Assembly: GCF_004010195.1 (NCBI RefSeq)
Contig: NC_057719.1
Location: 45,364,423-45,428,422, forward strand
Source: Chiloscyllium plagiosum
Taxonomy: Eukaryota
Length of the DNA: 64,000 nucleotides
Reading direction: 5' to 3'
The position numbers were made by a program, and so were the translations under genes. Under the pieces are notes generated by a model. That model worked only from the letters and a program-made list of their open reading frames with translations, was not told the DNA's origin and ran no database searches. Position 1 is the stretch's first letter, and each line of letters begins with the position of its first letter. This document shows, one piece after another, positions 4,774 to 58,059 of this stretch.

Positions 4774-6157
4774 ATATCTATGTACAATTCCATTAATTAT
4801 TCTTGAGTCCACAGTGTCACAACCACATACCAGCTGTTTCCTCAGAGTAATGCATGAGATTAGAAATTGTGTAATCTTGTATGCAGCATACTTTTAATCT
4901 TGAATGTTTCAACTTAAATAAAAACCAACAGCACAGCTTTATTTTTAAACAAGATAAAAAGTTAGTTTCTCACATAACTTTCTGGAAATGACCTCAGTCT
5001 AAGTGGTAAAGTTATTAGATAAAGAACAAACAAAAAGATTTGAAACATGAATGAGCATGAAAATGAGATCGGTCTCTCATATTGTTGCATGCCTGACTTG
5101 CTTGAAACTTCTCTTTCTGAAGTGAATGGATTGAAATACAAAGACACGTTCATGAGCTCTGATAGCATTTGCAGTTGGATACTTGGAGATTACTCCAACA
5201 GGTGGACTCAGTGAGCAGGGCACATCCTGGGAATCATTGAACGCTCTATTGATTCACTTTTGCAGCATACAGGTTGTGACTGTTGACAACCTGGTCTAGC
5301 ACAGCAGTCCTTTAGTTGGGTTTTGTCCTGGATTCTTTCCTGTACCTCCCTGAAGTGATCAATTTTTGCCTCAAGACATCTTTTTCATTGTGGCCAGATG
5401 GTTTTCTTCCTCACAGCCAGCTGGATGCCCCTCATCCACAGTTGCAATCATGCCCAGAGCTTAAAGGAAGGATGACTTGTCAGAAGCCTATGAGGCATGT
5501 CACCAGTTAATAAGTTTAATAAACTGGGTGTTCAGTCTTGGGAGAATATCTCATGAATTTGAGACTGTAAAACTACGAGATATAGGAGCAGGATTACGCC
5601 ATTTGGTACATCAAGCCTGCTCAATCATAGCTGATGTTATACTAAAGGTTCAACCTCAAAGATGCCATCTAAAATGCTAGGGAGATTCAACCAGAAATTC
5701 CATAGTCTGTTGTCTTTTTTAAACTACAGTACATATTACTTTCAGAAACACTTCTTCTCACTTACCTCCACGAGACATATTGGGAGTTCTGCAGTGATAC
5801 AGAGAATGGAAGACTTCATGATTACTGATTGTCAAAGTTGAAGGGAGCCTAATTGCAGGCACTTACAGAAGGATGGTATTGCTGTGAGATGCTTCGAGGT
5901 TGGTCAGATGTTTAATAGATTTCCCAGTCAAGGGAAAATGCAGCCATTGGAATAATAGCTGACAATGAATGAATCCCAGAAATCCACAGGGAATAGTTAA
6001 TAGATGCTTCCAATATGACTCTAAATATCACCGCCAGCAGTCAAATATTTGAAGCAACAACTTGTGAAATAGTTTTCATGGGCAAATAAAATAAAGATCA
6101 ACAGCTGGAAAATCTTATTTTAGTGGCCAATAACTTCAGGTGGCCCATGAGCACTTG

Positions 6158-7847
6158 AGTCGAGAGTGTGGTGCTGAAAAGCACAGCAGTTCAGGCAGCA
6201 TCCGAAGAGCAGGAGAATCGGTGTTTCGGGCATAAGCCCTTTATCAAGAATGAGGCTTGTGGGCCGGGGGGAGCAGACAGATAAATATGTCGGGGATGGG
6301 GCTGGGGTACTTGGGAATGTGATAGGTAGATGAAGGTGCGGGTGGAAATGATAAGTCGGAGGGGAGGGTGGAGTGGATGGGTGGGAAGGAAGGAAGATGG
6401 GCAGGTAGGACCGGTCAAAAGGGCAATGCCGAGTTGGAGGCTTGGGATTGTGATAATGTGGGGGGAGGGGAAATGAGGAAACTGGTGAAATCCACATCGA
6501 TCCCATGTGGTTGCAGGGTCACAAGGCGGAAGATGAGGTGTTCTTCCTCCAGGCATCGGGTGGTAAGGGCTGGACGATAGAAGAGGCCCATGACCTGCAT
6601 GTCCTTGATGGAGTGAGAGGGGGAGTGAAAATATTTAGCCATGGAGTGGAGGGGTTGGTTGGTGCAGATATTCCAGAGATGGTCTCTGAAACAATTCACA
6701 AGGTGGTGTCCTGTTTTCCCGATATAGAGGAGACGACAATGGATGCAACAGATATAGTAGGTAATATGTGTGCAAGTACAGGTACATTTCTGTCGGATGT
6801 GGAAAGATCCTTTGGGGCCTTGGATGGAGGGGAGGGGGAATCGTGTGTGCACAGGTTTTGCACTTCCTGCGGTGGCAGGGGAAGGTTCCAGGAGTTGGGG
6901 GTGGGCAGGTGGAGGGCATGGATCTGACAAAGGACTCGCGGAGGGAATGGTCTCTCTGGAATGCAGATAGGGGTGGGGAGGGAAATATATCCTATTGGTG
7001 GCATCTGTTTGTAGGTGGCGGAAGTGGCAGAGGATGATGCGATGTATGCAGAGGTTGGTAGGTGGAAGGTGAGGACCAGGGGTTCTGTTCCTGTTGTGAT
7101 TGAAGGGATAGAATTCAACAGTGGAGGAGCGAGAAGTGGAGAAGATGCTCCGGAGGGCATCATCAACCATGTAGAAAGGGTAATTGTAGTCTTTGAAGGA
7201 GGTGGCCATCTGGGATGTTCTATGGTGGAATTAGTCCTCTTGGGAGTAGATGCGGTGGAGGCGGAAGAATTGAGAATAAGGGATGGCATTTTTACAGGAG
7301 GCAGGGTGGGAGGAGGTGTAGTCCAGGTAGCTGTGGGAGTGGATTTGTAGTAAATGTCTGTGTCTAGTTGGTTGCCAGAGATGGATATGGAGAGGTCCAG
7401 GAAGGGGAGGGAGGTGTCCAAGGTGGTTCAGGTGAATTTGAGATCAGGTAGAAGGTGTTTGTGAAGTTGATGAACTGTTCAACCACCTCGTGGAGGTTCA
7501 TCTCCCATCTTATCACAATCCCAAGCCTCCAATCCGGTACTGCCCCCTTGATCAGTCATACCTGTTCATTTTCCTTCCTTCCCAGCCATCCACTCCACCA
7601 CCCCCTCTGACCTATCATTTCCACCCGCACCTTGATCTACCCATCCCATTCCTTGCTATCTTCCCCTGAGCCCCACCCCCTTTCCATTTATCTCTCAGCC
7701 CCCCAGCCCACAAGCCTCATTCCTGATGAAGGGTTTATGCCCAAAATGTCGATTCTCCTGCTCCTCAGAAGCTGCCTGACTTGCTGTGCTTTTCCAGCAC
7801 GACACTCTTGACTCTGATCTCCAGCATCTGCAGTCCTCACTTTACCC
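6158..7847 (-). mobile_element. 5'-truncated Penelope-like element (RT C-terminus + GIY-YIG endonuclease) with inverted pseudo-LTR
   Basis: ORFs 6696..7421 (SLPFLDLSISI..LDTDIYYK) and 6415..7209 (CTCTHITYYICCIHCRLLYIGKTG..FRDHL..LEEEHLIFRLVTLQPHGIDV); 7498-7847 is an inverted copy of 6158-6470. Confidence 0.92.
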
Positions 7848-18028: not shown

Positions 18029-18699
18029 CCACTGTTGCTTAACTTACAACTCAATTTGTTTAATTAATACCGTTGAATTTTGAGTTTGATATGCATGGGA
18101 ACATCTTCTTTTGAACATAGATTTTTAATTTTATTTTTAAAAAGTCAATAAAAAGCAGTATTCATGAATTCCTGTGCTCTCTGTAAGAGCTATAAACTGG
18201 TAGATTTTGAGAAAACCCCAGGGGCCTAACCATGACTTCCAACTTGAAAATCATTTGGAGTAGATCTACAATGTGTAGCCTTGGCAAGTGAGAATGCCTG
18301 CTACATGAGAATATTCATAAGATTGATGGTAAATTGTCAAACACTCAGCAAACGTTATCAGAGAAATAGGTTTCGATAATAAATGAAATGCTTAGCTCTG
18401 TTCCATAAGGAGGATTCTGACTGAACTAGAAGTTTAACTGATTGGCATAAAAAAGATAAAAGTGATATGATCAATTGGTGAACTTTCTCATGGCAGGTGT
18501 GCACATCTATTTTCCCTGATTTTCTGATGGATGCAGAAGTTTATAATTAGCCGTATTAAAGCAGGTCTTGAAAGCATCACTTACTATTCCCATTCTATAT
18601 CCTAGACCTCACAGTGGTCCAGGTTTCAATCATGCACTCTTACTATCAGTTAGAGTCATCCTTGGAGATCAGAGCTTAGTCATTTAGCCTATAATCCTA

Positions 18700-18890
18700 A
18701 AAGCAAAATGTTGCAGATGCTGGAAATCCTAATTAAAAACAGAAACTATTGGAAATATTCAACAGGTCTTGTTTAAAAAGAAATGGAGCTGACGTTTTAT
18801 TCTGAAAAGGTCATATCAGACATAAAATGTTAACTTTGTTTCTCCACTGATGGTGCCAGATGTACTGGTATTTCTAGAATTTATTGTTTT
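18700..18890. mobile_element. Palindromic PLE terminal remnant (old)
   Basis: aaaagcaaaatgttgcagatgctggaaatc..aaaaacagaaa / ttattgttttta, similar to 43385 and 48680. Confidence 0.5.
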
Positions 18891-20409
18891 TACTCCTATT
18901 ACCTTAACTCACTGTACTGATGAAATTGCTCAGTGTTAAACATGTTTGACAATTTACAGCCAACCTTATGCATGTTCACTTGCAACAAGCAGCTTTACCT
19001 GACAAATGGGAAACCGTAAACCAACTTGGAATGATGTTCAAATGGAAAGCCATGGGTAGCACACTGGTAATTTTCTGAATGTACTGGCAGGTGTGTGCAT
19101 TCATAGAATCATTTGATACTGTAATGGGTACAGGAATTTGGGCTGTTTTAACTTAACTACTTTTAATTGACATTTTAAAAATATAATTAAAAATCTGAGT
19201 TGCATTGAAGGTAAGTAGATATGTATATTAAATCAAAATTGTAAAATATACTCCAAATTGATTTGTTAGTTGAGCAGCATTAGATTTGTTAAAGATGTGT
19301 AAAAGGTAAATTTACAGTTGGAGTTTTTATTGGTATTTCCTTTGCAATCTGTTCTGATCCATTTTGGATGTTAATAGAAGTACAAATACCTAACTTCAAT
19401 TAATAGAACCATGTCACAAGCGTTCACTTTATTCTAACAAAATCAAAGGTTATTATATATAGAACAAGTTAGAGAAAACAATTGGAGTAAGTTAACACTG
19501 CAACTTATTCCTTTGTATGTCATGTGCTAAGATTTACTTCCTTCTACCCCGAGAATTCCTTTAGAAGACTCATCATTCTTAAAAATTGCTTATTTTTGTA
19601 GGACTATCCATAAGTATGCCACAATCCTCTGAAGAATTCTGCTCAGCTCCTGCTATTTTCCAGGGTAAAACTTTCATTTACCAATCCTTGACTATAAATG
19701 TCTCAGTTCCTTATTCTGGTTAGTTTTCGCTACTTCCAGGTTAATTGATTTTGTTTTGCAATACGTTACAGTGCAGCGCACACTAAATTCTCCTACTTGC
19801 TGCAAATTGGGTAATCTTCAAATATTTACTCCCTTACAAGATTCAAACTGATATTGGGCCCACCTACTTGGCATGCAGTCAGTGATGCTTCAGTCTACCT
19901 GCCTACAGTGCAGTTTTGCCTAACTATCATTCACTTTAGTTAGCTTCTCGCAGTGAACCGCAAACCACATCATGTCCACACAGTAAACAGCTTTTCCAGC
20001 AAGCACTCAGTTAAATTGAAACCAGAGAATCTTATTAAGCTCCATCCATCTATGTGATGATACGGACTGTTCTGGACTCAAACCAGCCTTTATATCTGAC
20101 TTATGACTTATTTTTAGATCTTATGAAATAAGTTTTGCCTTTAAATTAATTTAGCTCTACCTCCCAAAACAAGAAAGAATCTTTTTGTCCACACTTATTG
20201 TATGCCTTGCAGGCATGATGTCACCAGCTTTTTAGCAATGTAACTCTATCTCTTCTAACTTAATTAAATGTAATCAGTTCTTAAGATGTTTTGGCAAGCT
20301 CTAAACCCAGCTTTTTTGACCTTTTTTGACCATATATTCATCATCCCAAAATTAAAAATGACCTCTAAAATATGAGCTAGACATTTGCATCATTCTTTTC
20401 TGCTTCTCT

Positions 20410-30861: not shown

Positions 30862-31115
30862 CTGATGTAGGTTTTCTCACTGAGCTGGAAGGTTCATTTC
30901 CAGACGTTTCGTCACCCTACTAGGTAACATCTTCAGTGGGCCTCTGGGCAAAGCACTGCTGATAATTCCTGTTTTCTAAGTGCAGTGCTTCGCCCGGAGG
31001 TGCACTGAGGATGTTACTAGTATGGTAGTGAAACATCTGACAATGAACCTTCCAGCTCAGTGAGCAAATCTACATCCAGAACCTCAACCTGAGCTACAAA
31101 TCTTCTCAAAACCAG
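30862..31115. mobile_element. Palindromic PLE terminal remnant (second family) with two opposed hammerhead motifs
   Basis: Arms atgtaggttttctcactgagctggaaggttcatt / aatgaaccttccagctcagtgagcaaatctacat, plus tail aacctcaacctgagctacaaatcttctcaaaac. Confidence 0.8.
30900..30939 (-). ncRNA. Minimal hammerhead ribozyme motif, intact core and stems I and II
   Basis: Minus strand reads CCA-CUGAAGA-U-GUUACC-uaguag-GGUGAC-GAAAC-GUC-UGG (stem I CCA/UGG, stem II 6 bp including one GU pair). Confidence 0.85.
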
Positions 31116-33503: not shown

Positions 33504-36381
33504 TAATTCCAAGTTAAATATCTCTAACCCTGTCCAACTTGCCTGACACTGTCCCTATGAGAAGCAGCTAAAGGTCAGCCCCAATGAGCTCCCACTACAA
33601 CCCCATCCCTCCTTCCCCCCCCTCAAAAAAGATGAACAGCTCTGTTGTTGCAACTTGTTACTTTTCACTCTGGATGCATGCAAAGTCTGAGGTACTAAAA
33701 TTGGGTCACAACAGGAAAATGTTTGGGAAGCACATTATCGTGCAAACAAGGAAGAACTGTTTCTACTGATGACAGGGTCATAATTAGAGGAATTACATTT
33801 GAACTAATTGACTAAAACATTGTCACTTTACAAAGCAAATTATTGGCCCAGAAACTTTATTTCCAACCCTAGTTGAGTTTAAAAAATTACCAATCTACCT
33901 TTTAGATATCTTGTGCGTTGGAGATTCTTGACAGAGGCCTTCTGTTACAAACTCGTCCAGAAATCCACAGATGTGGTAGTGAAGATGATCTTCATAGAAA
34001 CCAAACAACCTTTTGCAGTAGTCAGTCTGCCTTATTTTGTGACTTAAATGTGCAGCAGCACAGACAGCCACTTTAACAGCTCCAGTGAAAGCATACGTAT
34101 TTAAGAAATTAGGCTGGCAGTTGGTTGAGAGGTCAGAAACACAGAAAACAGGAGTAGTAATAGGCTAAGTATTCTCCTTAATTCTATTTGCCAAAGCTAT
34201 CTCATGTCCCCTTTTGCCCTCTTGATTTCCCTCTAAAGTATGCTCCTACGGCTTTTATACTGTTCTAAGGATTCACTCGATCCAGCCTGTCTCTACCTGA
34301 CATAAGCTTCCTTCTTTTTCTTAACTGAACCCTCAATGTCTCTCGTCATCCAGCATTCTCTCTGCCTAGCAGCCTTTTCTTTTGCCCAAACAGGAATATA
34401 TTGTCTCTGGACTCTCATTACCTCATTTCTGAAGGCTTTCCATTTTACAGCCGTCCCTTTATCTGTGAACATCTGGCCCCAATCAGCTTTTGAAAGTTCT
34501 TGCCTAATACCGTCAAAATTGGCCTTTCTCCAATTTAGAACTTCAACTTTTAGATCTGGTCTATCTTTTTCCATCACTATTTTAAAACTAATAGAATTAT
34601 GGTCGCTGACCCCAAAGTGCTCCCACACAGACACTGCAGTCACCTGCCCTGCGTTATTTCCCAAGAGTAGATCAAGTTTTGCACCTTCTCTAGTAGGTAC
34701 ATCCACATACTGAATCAGAAAATTTTCTTATATATGCTTAACAAATTCCACTCCATCTAAACCCTTAACACTATGGCAGTCTCAGTCTATGTTTGGAAAG
34801 TTAAAATCCCCTCCCATAGCCACCCTATTATTCTCAATTTCCCTGACTATTAGGGGGTCTATAATACAATTCCAATAACGTGCCCATCCTCTTCTTATTT
34901 CTCAGTTCCACCCAAATAACTCCCCGGATGTATTTCCTCCCTCAGCACAGCTGTAATGCTATCCCTTATCAAAAACGCCACTCCCCCTCCCCTCATGCCC
35001 CCCTTTCTGTCCTTCCTGTAGCATTTGTAGCATCCTGGAACATTAAGCTGCCATTCCTGCCCATCCCTGAGCCACATTTCTATAATTGCTATAATATCCC
35101 AGTCCCATGTTCCTAACCATGCCCTGAGTTCATCTGCCTTCCCAATTAGGCCTCTTACATTGAAGTAAATGCAGTTTAATTTATCAGTCCTACCTTATTC
35201 TCTGCTTTGTCCCTGTCTACCCTGACTGTTTGACTCACTTCTTTTCTCAACTGTACCAGTCTCAGATTGATCTCTTTCCTCACTATCTCCCTGGGTCCCG
35301 CCCATCCACCTTAACTAGTTTAAATCCTCCCGAACAGCCCCAACAAATCTTCCTGGCAGTATATTAGTCCCCTTCCAATCCCCATCCATCTTGTACAGGT
35401 CACTTCTACCCCAGAAAGAGATCCCAATGATCCAAAAATATGAATCCTTGTCCCATACACCAGCTCCTCAGCCAAGCATTCATCTGCTCTAATTTCCAAT
35501 TCCTACTTTCACTAGCTCATAGCACTGGGAGTAATCCAGATATTACTACTCTTGAGGACCTACTTTTTAAATTCCTGCCTAACTCTCTGTGTTCTCCCTT
35601 CAGAATCACAACCTTTTCCCTTGCTATGTTGTTGGTTCCAATGTGTACAATGAGCCCCTGCTGGTCCCTCTCCCCCTTGAGAACATTCTGCGCCCTCTCT
35701 GAGACATCCTTGATCCTGGCACCAGGAAAGCATAACACCATTCTGATTTTTCGCTGCTGGCCACAGAAACGTCTGTCTGTGCCTCAAACTAGAGAGTCCC
35801 CTAACACATTCTTTTGGAACCCAACATATCCCTCACTTCATTAGAGCCAGTCTCAATGCCAGAAACTTGGCTGTTCGTGCGGCATTCCCCTAAGAATCCA
35901 TCATCCCCTGTATTTTCAAAAACAATATACTTATTTGAATTGGGGATAGCCACAGAAGACTCCTGCACCAGCTGCCTGCCTCTCTTATCTTTCCTGTAGT
36001 TAACCCATCTATGTGACTGTATCTGCGACTTTTCCCCGTTCCTATAACTGCCATCCATCACACCTCCTTGCTCTTGTAAATTCCTCACTGCCTCTACTTG
36101 TCATTCCAACCATTCCATTCGATCTGATAGGATTCACAACCAATGGCATTTATTGCAGATATAATCCTCAGTAACGCGTAAACTCTGCCTAAACTCCGAC
36201 ATCCAACAAGAAGAGCATTGGCCATTTTTGCTTCTTCCAATCTGCAGAGCCAGAAAATAGCACCATCTTATTCCTCGATAAAACACTGCTCCAGGCTAAC
36301 TTAATACTTATGGCTTAATATTTTTAATTCTAATTAAGAGACTTGCCTCAATAAAACATAGAATCAAGAAAGAACCCACTC

Positions 36382-45110: not shown

Positions 45111-45204
45111 AAATGTTTAGATACCTACTTACCTTAGGTACTTTTGAACATTTGGAGTTCTGAATGTGATTGGAGGTAGTTGCCTGATACTTAGAATTGG
45201 AAGG

Positions 45205-45435
45205 GGAAAGTGAGGCCTGCAGATGCTGGAGATCAGAGTTGAAAAATGTGATGCTGGAAAAACACAGCAGGCCAGGCAGCATCCGAGGAGCAGAAGAATC
45301 GACGTTTCAGGCATAAGCCCTTCTTCAGGAATCAAACCATTCCTGAAGAAGGGCTTATGCCCGAAATGTCGATTCTCCTGCTCCTCGGATGCTGCCTGGC
45401 CTGCTGTGTTTTTTCAGCATCACATTTTTCAAGTT
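45205..45435. mobile_element. Near-perfect palindrome of two head-to-head PLE tails, each beginning with a hammerhead motif
   Basis: 45237-45332 is the inverse of 45339-45433; minus strand CUGAAGA-A-GGGC-uuau-GCCU-GAAAC-GUC, plus strand CUGAAGA-A-GGGC-uuau-GCCC-GAAAU-GUC. Confidence 0.88.
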
Positions 45436-46079
45436 AGAATTGGAAGGTGACAGTGAAACAGATTTTGCCAAGGCACTGCACTGAACAGAGTCTGCCAGGA
45501 GTTATGTTTGCCCTTGCACTATAGACTTGTAAATGCTTTGTCGAGCAAAATGCTGAAGGTGTGAACTGATAACAGTAGCATAGGAAACTAGTTGTCTCAG
45601 ACCTCAGTAAAGAAAGCAAACAACTGTGTATTTCAGATTGAAAGATAATGAAGGAAATAGAGCAAGGGTTGACATAAAAGTGTACAAAAATAAGGAAATC
45701 TTGTTAAACCTTCATAAAACGTTGCTTCAGCTTCAAATGGAGTGTATGTCCAGTTTTCTGGGCACCACATTTCAGAAAGGTAGCATTGGAGAGGACGCAG
45801 AAAAGATTCATGAAGGTGATTTCAAGGTTTAGAGGGAAGTGTGCCAAAGGTAACTTGGTCAGCAAGGGTGAGTTGGACTGAAGCATCATACAGCACAGAA
45901 ACAGACTATATGACTGAGAAATAAGTGCAAATGAGCAATGATTTATTCAATGTCACATTATGTAAAGAAAAAGGAATAAAGAACTAGATATTATGTGAAC
46001 ACAAAATGATTTTAAATAACTTATTAAAATGTTGTAGATAACACCAAAATTAGTGTTGTAGGGAACAGCTAAGACAGTT

Positions 46080-47323: not shown

Positions 47324-47463
47324 TTACCTCTCTTCAATAACAATGCTGTCTTCTTCCTGGGCCGAACTGCAGCAGCACGTCCTGCAGTACCTACTGCTGC
47401 TGCTTCTATTGGTACTGCAGTCAAGCTCAGGAAGAAGACAACATAGACATTGAAGTGAGGTAA
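47324..47463. repeat. Imperfect ~140-nt foldback
   Basis: ttacctctcttcaataacaatgctgtcttcttcctgggccgaactgcag pairs with ctgcagtcaagctcaggaagaagacaacatagacattgaagtgaggtaa. Confidence 0.85.
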
Positions 47464-47614: not shown

Positions 47615-48780
47615 GTGTATGGTGGTGGCATACTACTGGAGGTGGCGAAAATGACAGATAATGATCTGCTGGATGTGGGTGCAGAGGTGGTTGGAAAGTG
47701 TCGACTAGGGGACCCTATTGCTGTTGTAACAGGGAAGAGAAGGGATGATGACCAAGTGCAGGAATTGGGTCAGGCGTGGCTGAGGGCCCTGTCAATCACA
47801 GTCATGGGGAATCTTTGCTTTTGTTTCTGATTTCCTTAGACAGGTGTAACTCCTGCCCATTTACTTTCTCCATCCTCACTATCCAACGCTCCTGACACTT
47901 TCCAGGTGAACACATTTACCTGCACATAGACTACAGCAGAATAGAAATTTATTGTCATGTACATTTTTACAAAAAAAGAAGTTTTATAAGTCACCATACC
48001 AAAGTGCCTGTATTAATGACATAAGTCATAGATAAGAAGGAAAAAAAGTAAAAATTAAGGCAAAGTTCATCTCAGATCAATTTATGTTTGGGGAAGGCCA
48101 ATTAAAACGACCACCGCTAGAATACCCGGAAGCTGCATTTCTCTCAATAAAACAGCATTCGCTGTTCACAATGTGGCCTCCTCTAAATTGGGGAGACGAA
48201 ATGCAGACTAAGCAACTGTTATGCAGAAAATCTATGTCTGTCTGCAAAAATGGCCCTCAGCTTCCCGTTGCCTGCCACATTAACACAACACTGTGTTCCT
48301 CAGTCAACATCTCTGTTTCAGGCTTGCTGTAGTGCTTCAGCGAACCTCAAGTTGGAAGAACAGCATCTCATTTTCCGCTTGGGGACTCTGCAATCTTGGA
48401 GCTCAGTATTGAGCTTAATAATTTTAGGGCCTAGCACCTTCTCCCATATCCTTAACACAAGTGCTGCACCTTGTTATCACATAGGCTGCTACTGGAAACA
48501 ACCCATTCTCAGCTGCTAATGGTCCCCATTGGTAGCTATTGATATCTGACCTCTACCAATTCCTTTGTCTGCCCAATTGTTTTTCTTTCTCTCTGGGCTT
48601 CATCTCCACCTATCGTTTATACCTACCCTCACCCCATCTTGAGCATATATACCAACCCTTTTCCTAGCTACTGTCAGTTCTAGAGAAGTGTCACTAGATC
48701 TGAAACATTAACTCTACTTTCTATCCAGAGATGCTGCTAGACCTGCTGAGCTTTCCCAGCAATTTCTGTTTTTCTTTCAA
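47615..48780. mobile_element. Rearranged Penelope-like fragments (minus piece 47615-47815; plus GIY-YIG and pLTR ~48150-48780)
   Basis: KLEEQHLIFRLGTLQ (48250 ORF); tail gttctagagaagtgtcactagatctgaaacattaactc..ccagcaatttctgttttt. Confidence 0.75.
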
Positions 48781-52504: not shown

Positions 52505-54120
52505 ACCAGAACTTCAAGTGAGACAGGGCAGAGATTACTATAGTAGCCATCATTAAGAAGAAGCTGCTGGGGAAGCTGAAAAGTCTGAAGATGGATACAT
52601 CACCAGGACGGGATGGACTATATCCCAGAGGTGTTGGCTGAGGAGATTTGTCAAGGCATTCAAGTGCTCTTCCATGAGTCACTGGAGTTTGTAAGATCCC
52701 AGAGGACTGGAAAATGATTAATGTAACACCGTGTTTAAGAAGGGAGGGAGGCAAAAGACAGGAAAATATAGACGTGTTAGCCTGACCTGGTCATTGACAA
52801 GATTTAGAGTCCATTATTAAGGATGAGATGTCTGAGTACTCGGAAGTGCATGGCAAAATAGGCCTATGTCAGTATGGCTTCATCAAGGGGATTTGATTTC
52901 ATTTATTTTTGCTGTATGTACCTAAGTACAGTGAAAAGTTTTAGTTTGCAGGCAGTACAGGCAGATAACATACAAAGATCATAGGGTGATTGAACAGAGC
53001 GAGGAATGGAAAGTTACGGCTGCAAAGAGGGTGCACTAAAAACAAGATCAACATTAAATTTGAAATTTGACAGGTCCATTCAGAAGTCTAATAACAGTGG
53101 GGAAGGAGCCATTCGTGAGCCTTTTAGTACATGTTTTTTAAACTTTTGTATCTTCTGTCTGACGGAAGAGATTCGAAAAGATTATAAGCAGGGTGGCAGG
53201 GATCTTTGATGATGTTGGCTGTCTTTCCGCAGCAACAAAAAGTGTAGATGGAGTCAATGGATGGAGGGTTGGCTTGGGATGTCATGTCTGACAAATCTGT
53301 TAGAAGTCTTTGAGGAGGTAATGAGCAAGTTAGACAAAGGAGAGGCAGTGGACATGACTGATTTAGATTTCCAGAAGGCCTTTGACAAGGTGCCACAGAA
53401 GAGACTGCCGAATAAGCTAAGAGCCCATGGTGTTAGGAGCAAGGTATTGGCACAGATATAGGATTGGCTGACTGAAAGAAGGGAGTAGGGATAAAAGTGT
53501 ATTTTTCAGAATGGAACCCAGAGCTAGGGAAGTCTTACAGGGGTCAGTGTTGGGAACACAACTATTCATGTTATATATTAACTACGTGCTTGAAGAAACT
53601 GAAGGCATTATTGCTAAATTAGTAGATGACACAAAGATAAGTGAAGGGACAGGTATTGTTGAGGGAGCAGGGAAACTGCAGAAGAACTCAGACTGGCTAG
53701 TTAAGTTAGCAAAGAAATGGTAGATAGAATATCCAAAAGTTGAGGTTATGCACTTTGTTAGAAAAATAGAAGCATAGATTATTTTCTAAATGGAGAAAGG
53801 CTTTATAAATAGAAAGCACAAAGGGACTTGGGAGTCAAAGTACACGATTCTCTTCAAGGTAACATGCAGGTTCAGTTGGGCAGTTAGGAAAGCAAATGCA
53901 ACGTTAGCATTTATTTCAAGAAAACAAGAATAAAAGAACAGATATGTACAGCTGAGGTTGATAAGGCTCTGGTCAGACCACATCTGAAATACTGAAAGCA
54001 GTTTTGGACACTGTATCTAAAGAAGGAAGTGCTAGAGTTGGATAAGGTTCTGAGAAGGTTTACAAGAATGATCCCAGATATGAAGGGTATGTCATATGAG
54101 GAGAGATTGAGGACTCTGTC
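52505..54120 (+). mobile_element. CR1 RT fragment interrupted by a Rex/Babar piece
   Basis: ORFs 53261 (SCLTNLLEVFEEV..DFQKAFDKVP) and 53511 (LQGSVLG..LVDDTK). Confidence 0.88.
52892..53277 (-). mobile_element. Rex1/Babar-type LINE 3' fragment
   Basis: PSIDSIYTFCCCGKTANIIKDPCHPAYNLFESLPSDRRYKSL (ORF 53124..53396) matches the Rex1 C-terminal pattern D..HP...LF..LPSGRR. Confidence 0.8.
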
Positions 54121-54222
54121 GGACTAGAGAGTCCCCTAACACAATTGATCTCTTGGAATCCAACATACCCCTCATTGCATTAGAATTTAGATAGACAAGT
54201 TGAAATGGATACAGTTTTAGAG

Positions 54223-54898
54223 AAACCACGGAACTGTGATAATGGCAATCAAACAAAAACAATAATTGCCGGAAAAGCTCAGCAGGTCTGGCAGCACTTG
54301 TGGAGTGAAATCGAGAGTTAACGTTTCAGGTCCAGTGATGCAGCCACACATGCTGAATTATTTCCAGCAATTTCTGGTTTTGTTTGATTGCCATCATCAC
54401 AGTTCCTTGGTTTGCACAATCAGGTTTGTGAAAATTGTCAGAAATTGAGTCACAAACATCTGGTACAAATTTGACAAATGGCTTTTGAATAGCCGATATT
54501 CAGTTTAGTTTATTTGATTTTGTGAGATCTTTTGGCAGACAATGTGTTTTTATGTTATTATCTGCATTTAGAATTTTCTAGAACTATAACAAAAACAGTA
54601 ACTGCTGGAAAAGCTCAGCAGGTCTGTCAGCACCTGTGGAGGGAAATCGAGTTTTAACGTTTCAGGTCCAGTGACGCAGCCACACCTACTAATATTTCCA
54701 GCAATTTCTGTTTTTGTTATAGTTTTAGAAAACTCTGTAAAGGCAGATAATAACATAAAAACACTGTCTGCCAAAAGATCTGACAAACTCAAATAAAATA
54801 AACTGAATACCGGCTATTCAAAAGCCATTTGTCAATCTTGTACCAAACGTTTGTGACTCAATTTCCGACAATTTTCATAAACATGATTGTTTGTGCAA
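54223..54898. repeat. Two adjacent foldbacks (54223-54413 and 54412-54898), each centred on a copy of the same PLE-derived core
   Basis: Core ggaaaagctcagcaggtctg.cagcac.tgtggag.gaaatcgag..ttaacgtttcaggtccagtga.gcagccacac occurs twice; arms differ between the two units. Confidence 0.92.
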
Positions 54899-55239
54899 TA
54901 CTGTGTGGGATAGCAGATGTAGAACAAATGCAAGGACATAATTCAAACTACTGGGAAAGTGAATGCTGGGGTGAAGAAACAATGAAAATAAGACAGAAAA
55001 AGTATAATATTTATAGATGTACAGCTTTATGACTGAGACACATTTCTGAAAGAGGTGGACCCGGCGAGTTAAAACAGCAAAGAGAGAGGCCCCCACACCA
55101 CCCACCTTTAAAAGATGAAAACAAGTTTATCTGTATACCCTATATTCAAAAATATAACTAAAATCTGAAAATGTGCGTCAAATCAAAAAGCTGTAGACAT
55201 GTTTCTGAAGCTTACACCGAAATTGGCTCAAATTTAACC

Positions 55240-55500
55240 GACATCGAAGGATAAGGTGCCAGCCAAAAAGACAGAAGATATTGAAGTGTTGGACCACAGA
55301 GCCGTTCGCATATCCAACTCTGCATTTTTTGACAGCCAGTGCAGTGACAAGCATGCGCATGCGCATATTTTTCGGTCATGCTTCTTCACTAGCGCATGTG
55401 CAAGCATCCCTCAAACGCGCTCCTTGGCGTCAGCAACCGCAACTATCTTTTAAACTGTCAACATTAGAGCTCGTGCGCATGCGGTGAGCTCACGTGTGCA
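55240..55500. promoter_or_regulatory. Candidate housekeeping-type promoter (CpG-rich, NRF1 motifs, E-box)
   Basis: gcatgcgcatgcgca (55351-55365; contains NRF1 consensus TGCGCATGCGCA), gcgcatgtgca (~55392), gtgcgcatgcgg (~55473), cacgtg (55491); local CpG enrichment. Confidence 0.5.
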
Positions 55501-56736
55501 AACCTCTGAACTCTCCTGTCATGTAATTCTAATAAGGGTGTACCTTCACATAAGTACACATTAGGCCTTAATAATTGTTAAATTTATGAGAGTTCTTGTG
55601 GTTAACGTGTCTTATCAGTCTCTTTAGTAAATCTTTTTAAATTTCTCCCCCTTCGGTTAGTATTATCAATGCAGTTGAACATTCGAAAGAAGCAATATTG
55701 CAATTGGCAAAATGGAACGAAAACCGAGATTTTAATATCAAGAGCCTAAAAGGCTATTAAGAATTCCAAAAAAAACTCTTACATCAATATGGACTCGCTC
55801 TGGTAAAGATTGCAACAATTATCAGAAGCACTAAAGTAGATAAATTGACCAATTAAAATTGGGATGTGGTATACATTTAACTAGAAAAGTGACAAGATAA
55901 CTTTTCTTCGATACTTCAGCGTATAAGTTAAATGTTCCTAAACGTTTAGGGGATTATTAACTTCTGCCTTATTGTATGAAGTAAAAAGGCATAAGACAAG
56001 ACATGAAACTATGGACAGTGAAAACATGCATTGTCTCTGTTTTGGCGTTACTACAAAATTATTATTCGCAGCAGAGAATAATAAAAATAAAGATATGTAT
56101 ATGCACTTTTTAAAGTCAATCTCCTTTGGGAATAATTATACAGCTAGCAAGTTTAAAATCCTTAGAAACACGACAAACTTACCCCAGAAAATGGTAGAAA
56201 ATGAAATGAAGCAAAGTTATTCGAACATTAATAGATGCCAGGGAATTCAATTAAGTACTGCAAAACTCACTTAGCATTAAATACTTGTGTAATAATTTCA
56301 GATCAAGAAGGATGTGATGTATCTATCAAATCAATATATAACAGGATTTCAAAGAAATACGCTATGGGAAATGGAACCTATATATTTATTACAGTCAAGG
56401 AAGATAAATCTGTTATATTCAATGGAAGCTATTTAAAAGAAAATTGAAGTGGCTAATTTTCCAGAATTTGAAATCACAGCAGCCAGTTGTTGTTTTAATC
56501 CTCAAAATGTTTGTAAAATAACTATATATTTAAGTATATGGATTTCTGTCAGGCTCATGATAACCAATATTACTTTTGCTACCAAGTTCGATCTACCCCA
56601 AATTCTAAAAAATCTTACAACTTAGAACTTCTTACAAATCAGTAAGGTAGTCTGTATCATTTATCAAAAATTTCATTACTACAATAGTTGTTTGCAAATC
56701 GATTGGTACATCCCATAAATGCCAGAAATTCAATTA

Positions 56737-57452
56737 TCATATGTACTCAAGTTATAGACAACCTCATGTAAAAATTGACCCCCTATTTTTGGCCAGAAAA
56801 TCTGGAATTTTTCATTTATTTCATATCTCATATCTCATATATCTCATCTCAGTTCTTTACACTTAATAGATCAACATTTATGAGCCAAGGTATTATCCTG
56901 TGTATAAATGATACAGCTACAATGATTGGTGAGACTGTAGAGTCAAATGTCTAGTAACTTGTTTCATCAGAAATAAAAGTTAAAACATTAGTTTGAAAAG
57001 CTAAAACAACTGCAGATGAGAGAAAACAGAGGGAAATGGAAGAAATTGGTAGGAAAGTTTAAGATGCATCAGGTCAGAGTCAGGCGCATGCAGTTCAGCT
57101 GAGCTCAGTTCCCCTGTAACACTTATGGAATACAGTCATATACCTAGTTGAGGTTTTGAAATTTCTTCATCATTTTGTGTAAAAATGCCCTCCAGAGAAA
57201 GCAAAAAATATACAGCATCACTTAAAAGTTACTGAAATTGCAGGGAAAACAAATACCTGTGTGGTAGCAATTGCCAAAATTTTTTGTGTTTTTTTTGTTT
57301 AGCGATCAATTGAGCTTCTGCTAATGAAACGATACTTTGGACTATAGCATGAATTTCAGCCCCTGAAAAGTAGTATCCACATAATAGTTGACCCCATAAA
57401 TTTAACCTTAAAAAAATTCTTAAAAATTCGACTTTTATATGAATATATACAG
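56737..57452 (+). mobile_element. Non-autonomous pogo/Tigger-like (Tc1/mariner) DNA transposon
   Basis: Degenerate TIRs tcatatgtactcaagttatagacaac / tcgacttttatatgaatatatacag flanked by TA; internal frameshifted KKYTAS/LKVTEIAGKTNTCVVA resembles a pogo transposase N-terminus. Confidence 0.6.
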
Positions 57453-57744
57453 TATACTTAATATTATTTTAGGCATTCATTCTGACCTATTGTTTATTGA
57501 TACAAATGACATTTTAAATCATTAGCACTATTTTACAATTGTTATATCATTGTAACTATTATTTGGTTGTGTATTAATTTAAACCCTAAAGTAGCTACTG
57601 TTTTTGCAGCTACCATTTCTTGAATAGGATAATTTATATTTCATGTTTTCCACAAATGATTGGAAATTCATTCCTTGAATGGATCAATTTAGTAATTATT
57701 GGAATGATTATATTTCTTCTTATTTACTCTGAGCCTTTCATTTA

Positions 57745-57925
57745 TAAAGTTAAAAATCGCACAACACCAGGTTATAGTCCAACAGGTTTATTTGGAAGTA
57801 TAAGCTTTCGGAGCGCTGCTCCTTTGTCAGGTAGCTTGTACTTCCAAATAAACCTGTTGGATTATAACCTAGTGTTATGTGTTTTTAACTTTGTCCACCC
57901 CAACCCAACACCTGCACCTCCACAT
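57745..57925. mobile_element. Palindromic PLE terminal remnant (same family as 128-313)
   Basis: aaagttaaaaatcgcacaacaccaggttatagtccaacaggtttatttggaagta / tacttccaaataaacctgttggattataacctagtgttatgtgtttttaacttt; minus CUGAcaA-A-GGAGC-agc-GCUCC-GAAAG-CUU. Confidence 0.8.
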
Positions 57926-58059
57926 CGTGGCCTTTCATTTATGATAATTCAAGTCTAAACATATTTTCCAGTTCTGTCCTACAGACCAAGGCAGTTACAC
58001 TGAACTTATATAGTGCCATCAGGCAACTGTACCATCAGAGAGACCCCACCACATCAATT

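Follow-up and report, generated by a model that had tools for sequence, protein, structure and literature searches.

The insertions made by EN+ PLEs have a described form, in which the element is accompanied by an inverted copy, an optional one-sided tail of 30-40 bp and a target-site duplication (TSD), as set out in the available parts of PMC3846280 and PMC8557442. It has been reported, in the accessible portion of PMC11167929, that the purified PLE of the anole cleaves and extends both strands and that RT starts at two sites which delimit the tail. Inverted PLE pairs would represent double priming of both nicked target strands. The inversion of a spacer between short inverted repeats by template switching has also been documented (PMC5453318; bioRxiv 2023.04.19.537475, available sections). 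The locus described here lies at positions 54223-54898 of a 64-kb stretch of Chiloscyllium plagiosum DNA, referred to as the window, and consists of twin hairpins. Each ingredient of these hairpins is already known. No description of the doubled-and-flipped arrangement was found for PLEs in a literature search with subscription papers, Repbase/Dfam and supplements outside its scope.

The two fold-backs lie at 54223-54413 and 54412-54898 (Table 1), and the coordinates and motifs given for them in the preliminary description were verified in the sequence. The inverted arms of unit 1 (54223-54275 and 54361-54413) are 53 nt long with 89% identity, and those of unit 2 (54416-54549 and 54757-54890) are 134 nt long with 90% identity. 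In both units the arms extend via small indels up to the edges of the core. The near-identical core of about 130 bp that had been reported for each unit was found at 54252-54384 and at 54588-54718, in the same orientation and about 90% alike (118 matches, 13 mismatches and 1 gap). The unusual internal junction said to be shared by the cores was likewise recovered, as a 21-nt motif which occurs twice in the window with up to three mismatches allowed, against a chance expectation of 0.00. The fold-back region folds with z = -37 against 20 shuffles and the core alone with z = -8.4. No ORF of 120 aa is present within 54223-54898.

Table 1. Positions in the window of the parts of the twin fold-back locus and of two reference features, with the assignments proposed here
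Feature	Position	Strand	Remarks
Left TSD of the original PLE insertion	54211..54224	+	12/14 identical to 54719-54732; last 1-2 bases ambiguous with the tail
PLE tail, original copy (left arm A)	54225..54251	-	aligns to 5/5 window PLE tails; resembles the loose-end consensus
Core 1 left half, 5'-truncated PLE 3' end	54252..54338	-	hammerhead stem II and GAAA, without CUGANGA; 80% to 48691-48776
Core 1 right half, second PLE 3' end, inverted, shorter and tailless	54339..54384	+	last 11 nt = proposed switch point
Second tail copy (right arm A), part of the inverted middle segment	54385..54411	+	25/27 identical to the reverse complement of 54225-54251
Sole non-homologous junction	54412..54413	.	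2-bp microhomology: far end of flank B / TSD-tail border; spanned in three organisms
Inverted copy of flank B (unit 2 left arm)	54412..54587	-	160 matches, 14 mismatches, 3 gaps to 54719-54898
Inverted third TSD copy	54574-54587		within the inverted flank B copy
Core 2 left half	54588..54674	-	outer 11 nt = other proposed switch point
Core 2 right half, inverted PLE end without tail	54675..54718	+	junction with the right TSD preserved from the original insertion
Flank B	54719..54898	+	right TSD (54719-54732) and unique host DNA, continuous with the right flank; mirroring ends at 54898
Reference: decayed PLE 3' portion, same end family	48163..48776	+	GIY-YIG C-terminal coding remnant, then terminal repeat
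CpG-rich patch (earlier 'promoter-like patch')	55300..55499	.	6 and 8 CpG per 100 nt against 0.97 in the window

Contigs and reads from 4 of 24 listed runs were aligned to 54000-55500 at 82% likeness, and the contig pieces listed are the longest 24 of 59,587. The succession core 1, arm A, arm B and core 2 is spanned by contigs in organisms A, B and C (54290-54619, 54307-54626 and 54283-54621), as is the passage from core 2 through arm B into the right flank (54612-55500, 54619-55394 and 54628-55366). The left edge, from flank through tail to core 1, is crossed by no listed contig piece and is taken from the window sequence itself. An assembly artefact was ruled out, the arms being 8% diverged and the internal junctions being present in contigs of three organisms. 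Run X1 may represent the window's own sample; organisms B and C differ from the window at about 3-5% of sites. Because organisms B and C carry the final form too, the twin-hairpin structure is real and older than the split of the organisms.

The core had been likened to a PLE tail at 48680-48775, and the left 87 nt of each core are indeed about 80% identical to 48691-48776. This left half is a PLE 3' end on the minus strand with very high copy number, at a depth of 10^5-10^6 in three organisms. The right half (44-46 nt, plus strand) is a second, shorter PLE 3' end. In core 1 it matches the reverse complement of the left half at 36 positions with 9 mismatches, and across the cores the identity is 77-80%. 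Each core is, as read from its sequence, an inverted pair of PLE 3' ends. The absence of the CUGANGA half of the hammerhead from the core, also noted previously, is borne out by the CTGANGA...GAAA pattern, which occurs 12 times in the window and not once in 54223-54898. A search of 44-57 kb against Rfam with E up to 5 gave 8 weak matches, all below the gathering score and none to a hammerhead family.

The assignment of the reference copy to a PLE draws on its coding remnant, of which 48163-48444 matches the ORF at 6418-7230 (tblastn E = 1.3e-5). The nearest Atlas clusters of this ORF score 0.96, and GIY-YIG is found in 13% of the cluster members. A Pfam scan of four decayed ORFs, including 6418-7230, returned no PLE domain, and the GIY-YIG call rests on the Atlas lead together with tblastn. 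The frame 1 translation of 48227-48433 gave no useful information. Inverted pairs of PLE ends are commonplace in this DNA: in the contigs, the PLE left end is joined to an inverted end at many different points (from the 15 of 141 joints listed), and the junction of the 54223-54898 core is absent among those listed. None of the 14 listed paralogous core pieces (from the 24 of 59,587 pieces) runs past 54339 or 54675. Metagenome contigs gave no match to the junction motif, a blank which is uninformative, as the family motif also gave none and the collection is without usable copies.

The arms had been said to resemble no other repeat in the window. This stands for the first 40 nt of arm B, for which 1458 of 2000 shuffles reach the score obtained against the PLE tails, but not for arm A, which aligns to all five PLE tails of the window that were tested, with scores reached by 7, 16, 2, 37 and 17 of 2000 shuffles. 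Arm A also resembles, by eye, the loose-end consensus before 54251 in hundreds of paralogous contigs from three DNA runs, and its tail length is 27-29 nt. The short arm A is thereby identifiable as a PLE tail rather than host DNA, and the tail would be one-sided once the inversion is undone. The depth of arm B is essentially one contig per run in three organisms, with one contig over 54765-54968, and no long copy of it was found in the window except its own mirror. A MITE or fold-back transposon, in which many dispersed copies would share the long terminal inverted repeats, was rejected on this depth, measured at 82% likeness.

The first 14 bases of arm B match the 14 bases left of unit 1 at 12 of 14 positions. 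A match of this quality to the TSD is reached by 5 of 127,974 14-mers in the window (both strands, self included), three of which are at this locus, and with position left free the TSD score at the 54223-54898 locus is reached by 10 of 500 shuffles. A single TSD pair brackets both cores, since the start of arm B matches the sequence just left of unit 1. Controls with the same anatomy carry exact TSDs beside a one-sided extension, of 14 bp at 45191-45447 and of 13 bp at 57733-57942. The crude TSD search was significant at only 2 of the 7 other inverted-repeat elements of the window.

By the four features tested, namely PLE-type ends, an adjacent inverted 5'-truncated copy, a tail and a TSD, the unit can be classed on sequence grounds as a truncated EN+ PLE insertion. 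A complete hammerhead motif or an RT-EN ORF, needed for an active element and not for a truncated copy, was not found in 54223-54898. The inferred original unit has the same TSD, one-sided tail and inverted ends as the EN+ PLE insertions in the available parts of PMC3846280, PMC8557442 and PMC11167929. Unlike those insertions, the unit here is doubled together with 175 bp of flank and has its middle flipped, so that tail and flank are each mirrored. Inverted duplication of flanking DNA had been proposed for both units. It is retained for the long arm, where unique flank pivots on the terminal inverted repeat of the core in the manner expected of template switching, and abandoned for the tail-derived arm A. 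The two units would then be two halves of one rearranged duplication, and not two cores each wrapped in its own host-derived arms.

The idea that a PLE module makes inverted flanks repeatedly found no support either. It would correspond to a non-autonomous PLE derivative inserted twice, each time making inverted arms from its own flank, which could explain why two cores have one junction and why the mirror image of unique flank in arm B begins exactly at the edge of the core. Such an origin is highly improbable: arm A is tail, the one TSD pair surrounds both cores, all pieces are equally diverged and 0 of 14 listed paralogues cross the junction. A mirrored flank was found at none of the seven other short inverted-repeat elements in the window. 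Two candidates for a further case were set aside. At the element 128-313 a weak score (1 of 200 shuffles) lies 244 nt from the right end and is unanchored, and the structure at 18.0-19.3 kb is an older palindrome of about 70% whose arm is interrupted by a PLE pair.

Non-LTR retrozymes (bioRxiv 10.64898/2026.07.22.740005) are likewise short derivatives of PLE terminal repeats with two units side by side, according to the portion of that report available. The locus was not assigned to them, as the units described there are arranged in direct tandem and every one of them has a complete type I hammerhead, and the cores here are without the catalytic half.

The arrangement can be derived from one ancestral insertion. 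When the ancestral order X, TSD, tail', core, B, Y is converted to X, TSD, tail', core, tail, B', core, B, Y, where primes denote inverted segments, the model accounts for 674 of 674 bases. The divergence between copies is 7.4% for the tail, 9.9% for the core and 8.0% for the flank, and is homogeneous (p = 0.82). The divergence between the two halves of a core is 20% and 23%, which is greater than that between the duplicates (Fisher p = 0.03 and 0.014, not independent). The cores also share departures from their family, with one substitution against the loose-end consensus and one extra base at 54313/54649; contigs without this base at 54313 number 96, 98 and 89. Because the duplicates are equally diverged, less so than the core halves, and because the cores share these family departures, the duplication came once, and probably long after the insertion. 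The higher divergence between left and right halves could reflect two PLE subfamilies instead of age, which would weaken the dating. The anatomy and the single duplication are together regarded as very probable.

A history of three steps, with a template switch at the DNA level, is given a probability of roughly 0.6. In the first step a PLE would have inserted in the form TSD, tail, left end, inverted right end and TSD; the anatomy of this step is observed and its enzymology is taken from the literature. This form fits priming of both nicked target strands from two RT start sites. In the second step, after the insertion had decayed, a segment of about 335 bp comprising tail, core and flank B would have been duplicated in tandem via a 2-bp microhomology. 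In the third, the 203 bp of flank B and tail that separate the two cores, from the right tip of the first to the left tip of the second, would have been inverted as the result of a reciprocal template switch confined to the terminal 11 bases of these inverted tips. The second and third steps may equally have been a single event in which templates were switched three times, or the joining of two fold-back-primed ends, and the product would be identical. The outcome would be two long hairpins that arose at once, became fixed in the ancestor of the three sampled organisms and have been decaying since. The final rearranged form is found in all three organisms compared, with no pre-rearrangement or intermediate allele among them, and the order and number of events are therefore inferred.

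Within their last 11 nt, the two inner tips can be told apart at a single site, which is private to the right half of core 1. A diagnostic site 12 nt from the tip groups left half with left half and right half with right half. As this site stays with the cores, the exchange appears confined to the last 11 nt. Short inverted repeats are present at both switch points. In the template-switch examples of PMC5453318 and bioRxiv 2023.04.19.537475 exchange between inverted repeats also makes long stems at once, as in the 11-bp inverted tips here. The present locus departs from the examples in the available text of these sources in its spacer, which at 203 bp greatly exceeds theirs, in needing a tandem duplication or a third switch as well, and in having a retroelement as the source of its inverted repeats. 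Unequal exchange involving just the TSDs was rejected, as it cannot bring in the other 161-166 bp of flank. A 6-mer shared near both breakpoints was rejected as the junction microhomology, as 8 tail bases intervene. Duplication and inversion were most likely the work of a host polymerase, acting in replication or repair, that switched templates at the hairpin formed by the core itself.

The duplication starts within 0-2 bases of the TSD/tail border, which is one of the two PLE RT starts, and this position is a point in favour of a second, tentative explanation. Here the duplication would be a local re-copying driven by an active PLE in trans, with the insertion and inversion steps as in the three-step history. 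By one route, the resident copy would have been transcribed leftward with read-through, RT would have started at the tail end of this transcript with priming from a nick 175 bp downstream, and the cDNA would have extended through the core into flank B to be resolved by homology. By the other, the PLE endonuclease would have nicked the tail border and so seeded the event; the two routes taken together are possible and no better than that. In the part of PMC3846280 available, PLEs are described as enclosing captured host DNA within their terminal repeats, and it is proposed that read-through transcripts prime themselves. The CpG-rich patch 400-600 bp to the right would also suit re-copying. The re-copying needs transcription of a decayed copy, and no RNA read falls on the unique arms, a weak objection at about 2% of one polyA run. 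The inversion would still require a switch at the DNA level, and the window offers no second case (0 of 7 elements). Of the 11-17 AA microhomologies within the 100-200 nt to the left of the core, 1-2 are at the tail border, so a breakpoint at the tail end would arise by chance alone in roughly 6-18% of cases, a small yet appreciable share. The three-step history with a host polymerase remains the preferred reading.

A single integration event would account for the same breakpoint. The source RNA would already have carried the decayed palindromic core, and remodelled nicked target ends would have given the inverted flank, as at some LINE-1 insertions. It is reported in the available part of bioRxiv 2024.12.14.628481 that L1 insertions may be accompanied by an inverted duplication of the DNA next to them, with a microhomology of 2 bp and the TSD preserved, and the present locus likewise has an adjacent inverted copy of the target, a 2-bp microhomology and a retained TSD. 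The divergence of the TSD (2 of 14) is indistinguishable from that of the duplicates, which also suits this origin. A source copy with the same junction is required, however, and none occurs among the listed contig pieces; by itself, the event also leaves two cores in the same orientation unexplained. In the LINE-1 case, as far as that source describes it, the inversion occurs during integration and the element is single, whereas here there are two copies of the element and the divergence indicates a later event. An origin during integration is judged unlikely.

Small inverted triplications (DUP/IN/DUP, about 150 bp) are of similar scale, and in the accessible part of PMC13334657 they are attributed to replication errors at palindromic sequence. 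The locus was not classed as one of these: the cores are direct, the middle consists of tail and flank, and only the 14-bp TSD is present three times with an inverted middle copy.

The locus had further been proposed to be kept as a hairpin-RNA cassette, which could serve as an endo-siRNA, miRNA or editing substrate whatever its origin. The predicted stems are very stable, with longest uninterrupted helices of 29 and 41 pairs on the minus strand, and the locus is present in three organisms. The arms nevertheless drift like the flank, with 10 differences to organism C in 283 positions against 20 in 468 (p = 0.70; arm positions under repeat depth were left out). Eleven arm changes are found among the 40 of 149 differences listed; seven break a pair, four restore one and none is compensatory. 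No Rfam family reaches its gathering score. Retention for such a function is very unlikely. The unique arms received 0 RNA reads in 12.96 million records, which is a weak result at about 2% of one single-cell polyA run in which the flank is empty too. In the same sample of about 2%, the 379 aligned RNA reads all fall on repeat parts, 98% of them continue into other sequence, and none lies on the CpG patch.

The patch at 55300-55499 contains repeated GCGC/ATGC palindromic motifs, which resemble NRF1 sites. Organisms B and C show indels and a contig break near 55317-55390.

Composite Ac/Ds insertions with siRNA (bioRxiv 2020.01.07.897926) share with this locus a transposon-linked inverted duplication and potential dsRNA. 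In the available text of that report they involve a DNA transposon, alternative transposition and demonstrated transcription, none of which applies here, and they are a functional analogue only.

The twin hairpins are most likely a neutral one-off accident, and as it stands the locus means little, being a single neutral fossil that combines a PLE insertion form and local rearrangements of known kinds. It provides a clean worked example of how a long hairpin can be made from 175 bp of unique DNA by the inverted ends of a retroelement. Its precise and countable signature is the duplication breakpoint at the tail end, which bears on a step of the PLE cycle still to be worked out, namely whether resident copies are copied again by PLE enzymes along with the DNA that flanks them. 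If recurrent across the genome, this signature would matter for the PLE mechanism and for the origin of dsRNA-forming loci. It is conceivable, and the less favoured account, that an active PLE enzyme re-copied the decayed resident mini-insertion in place and that the inverted tips then flipped the spacer. In that event the fold-back stumps, which these genomes contain in their thousands, would repeatedly give rise to long locus-specific hairpins of host DNA, and each such locus would be a natural record of how a PLE acts in cis on the DNA beside it.

Seven further short inverted-repeat elements are present in the window, and two of them have hammerhead patterns on both arms. The element at 45191-45447 is a young inverted pair of PLE ends (93%); the hammerhead pattern is complete on each of its arms, its tail is one-sided and its TSD of 14 bp is exact. 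An inverted pair at 30864-31076 (80%) has a hammerhead-type pattern on each arm; its family is otherwise absent from the window and no TSD was found. The elements at 57733-57942 and 128-313 belong to the same short inverted-repeat family, are 82% alike and have a one-sided extension; neither matched a hammerhead pattern, and the former has an exact 13-bp TSD. The short palindrome at 47324-47463 (70%) is single in the window, with no TSD or hammerhead pattern found.

An old palindrome lies at 18033-18444 and 18627-19279, with arms of about 400 nt at about 70% identity, a spacer of about 180 nt and no other copy in the window. Inside its right arm is an inverted PLE pair at 18700-18891, with a degenerate TSD of 13 bp recognised by eye. 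A larger PLE insertion at 6157-7814 has inverted ends of about 310 nt around a decayed RT/GIY-YIG-like coding sequence. At 56715-57480 the inverted end match is weak (11 of 500 shuffles); its ends resemble those of a non-autonomous DNA transposon of the Tc1/pogo type. In the left flank of the twin fold-backs, 53400-54184, a decayed LINE-like piece precedes 62 nt of a high-copy repeat (54123-54184) that is also present at 35788-35845.
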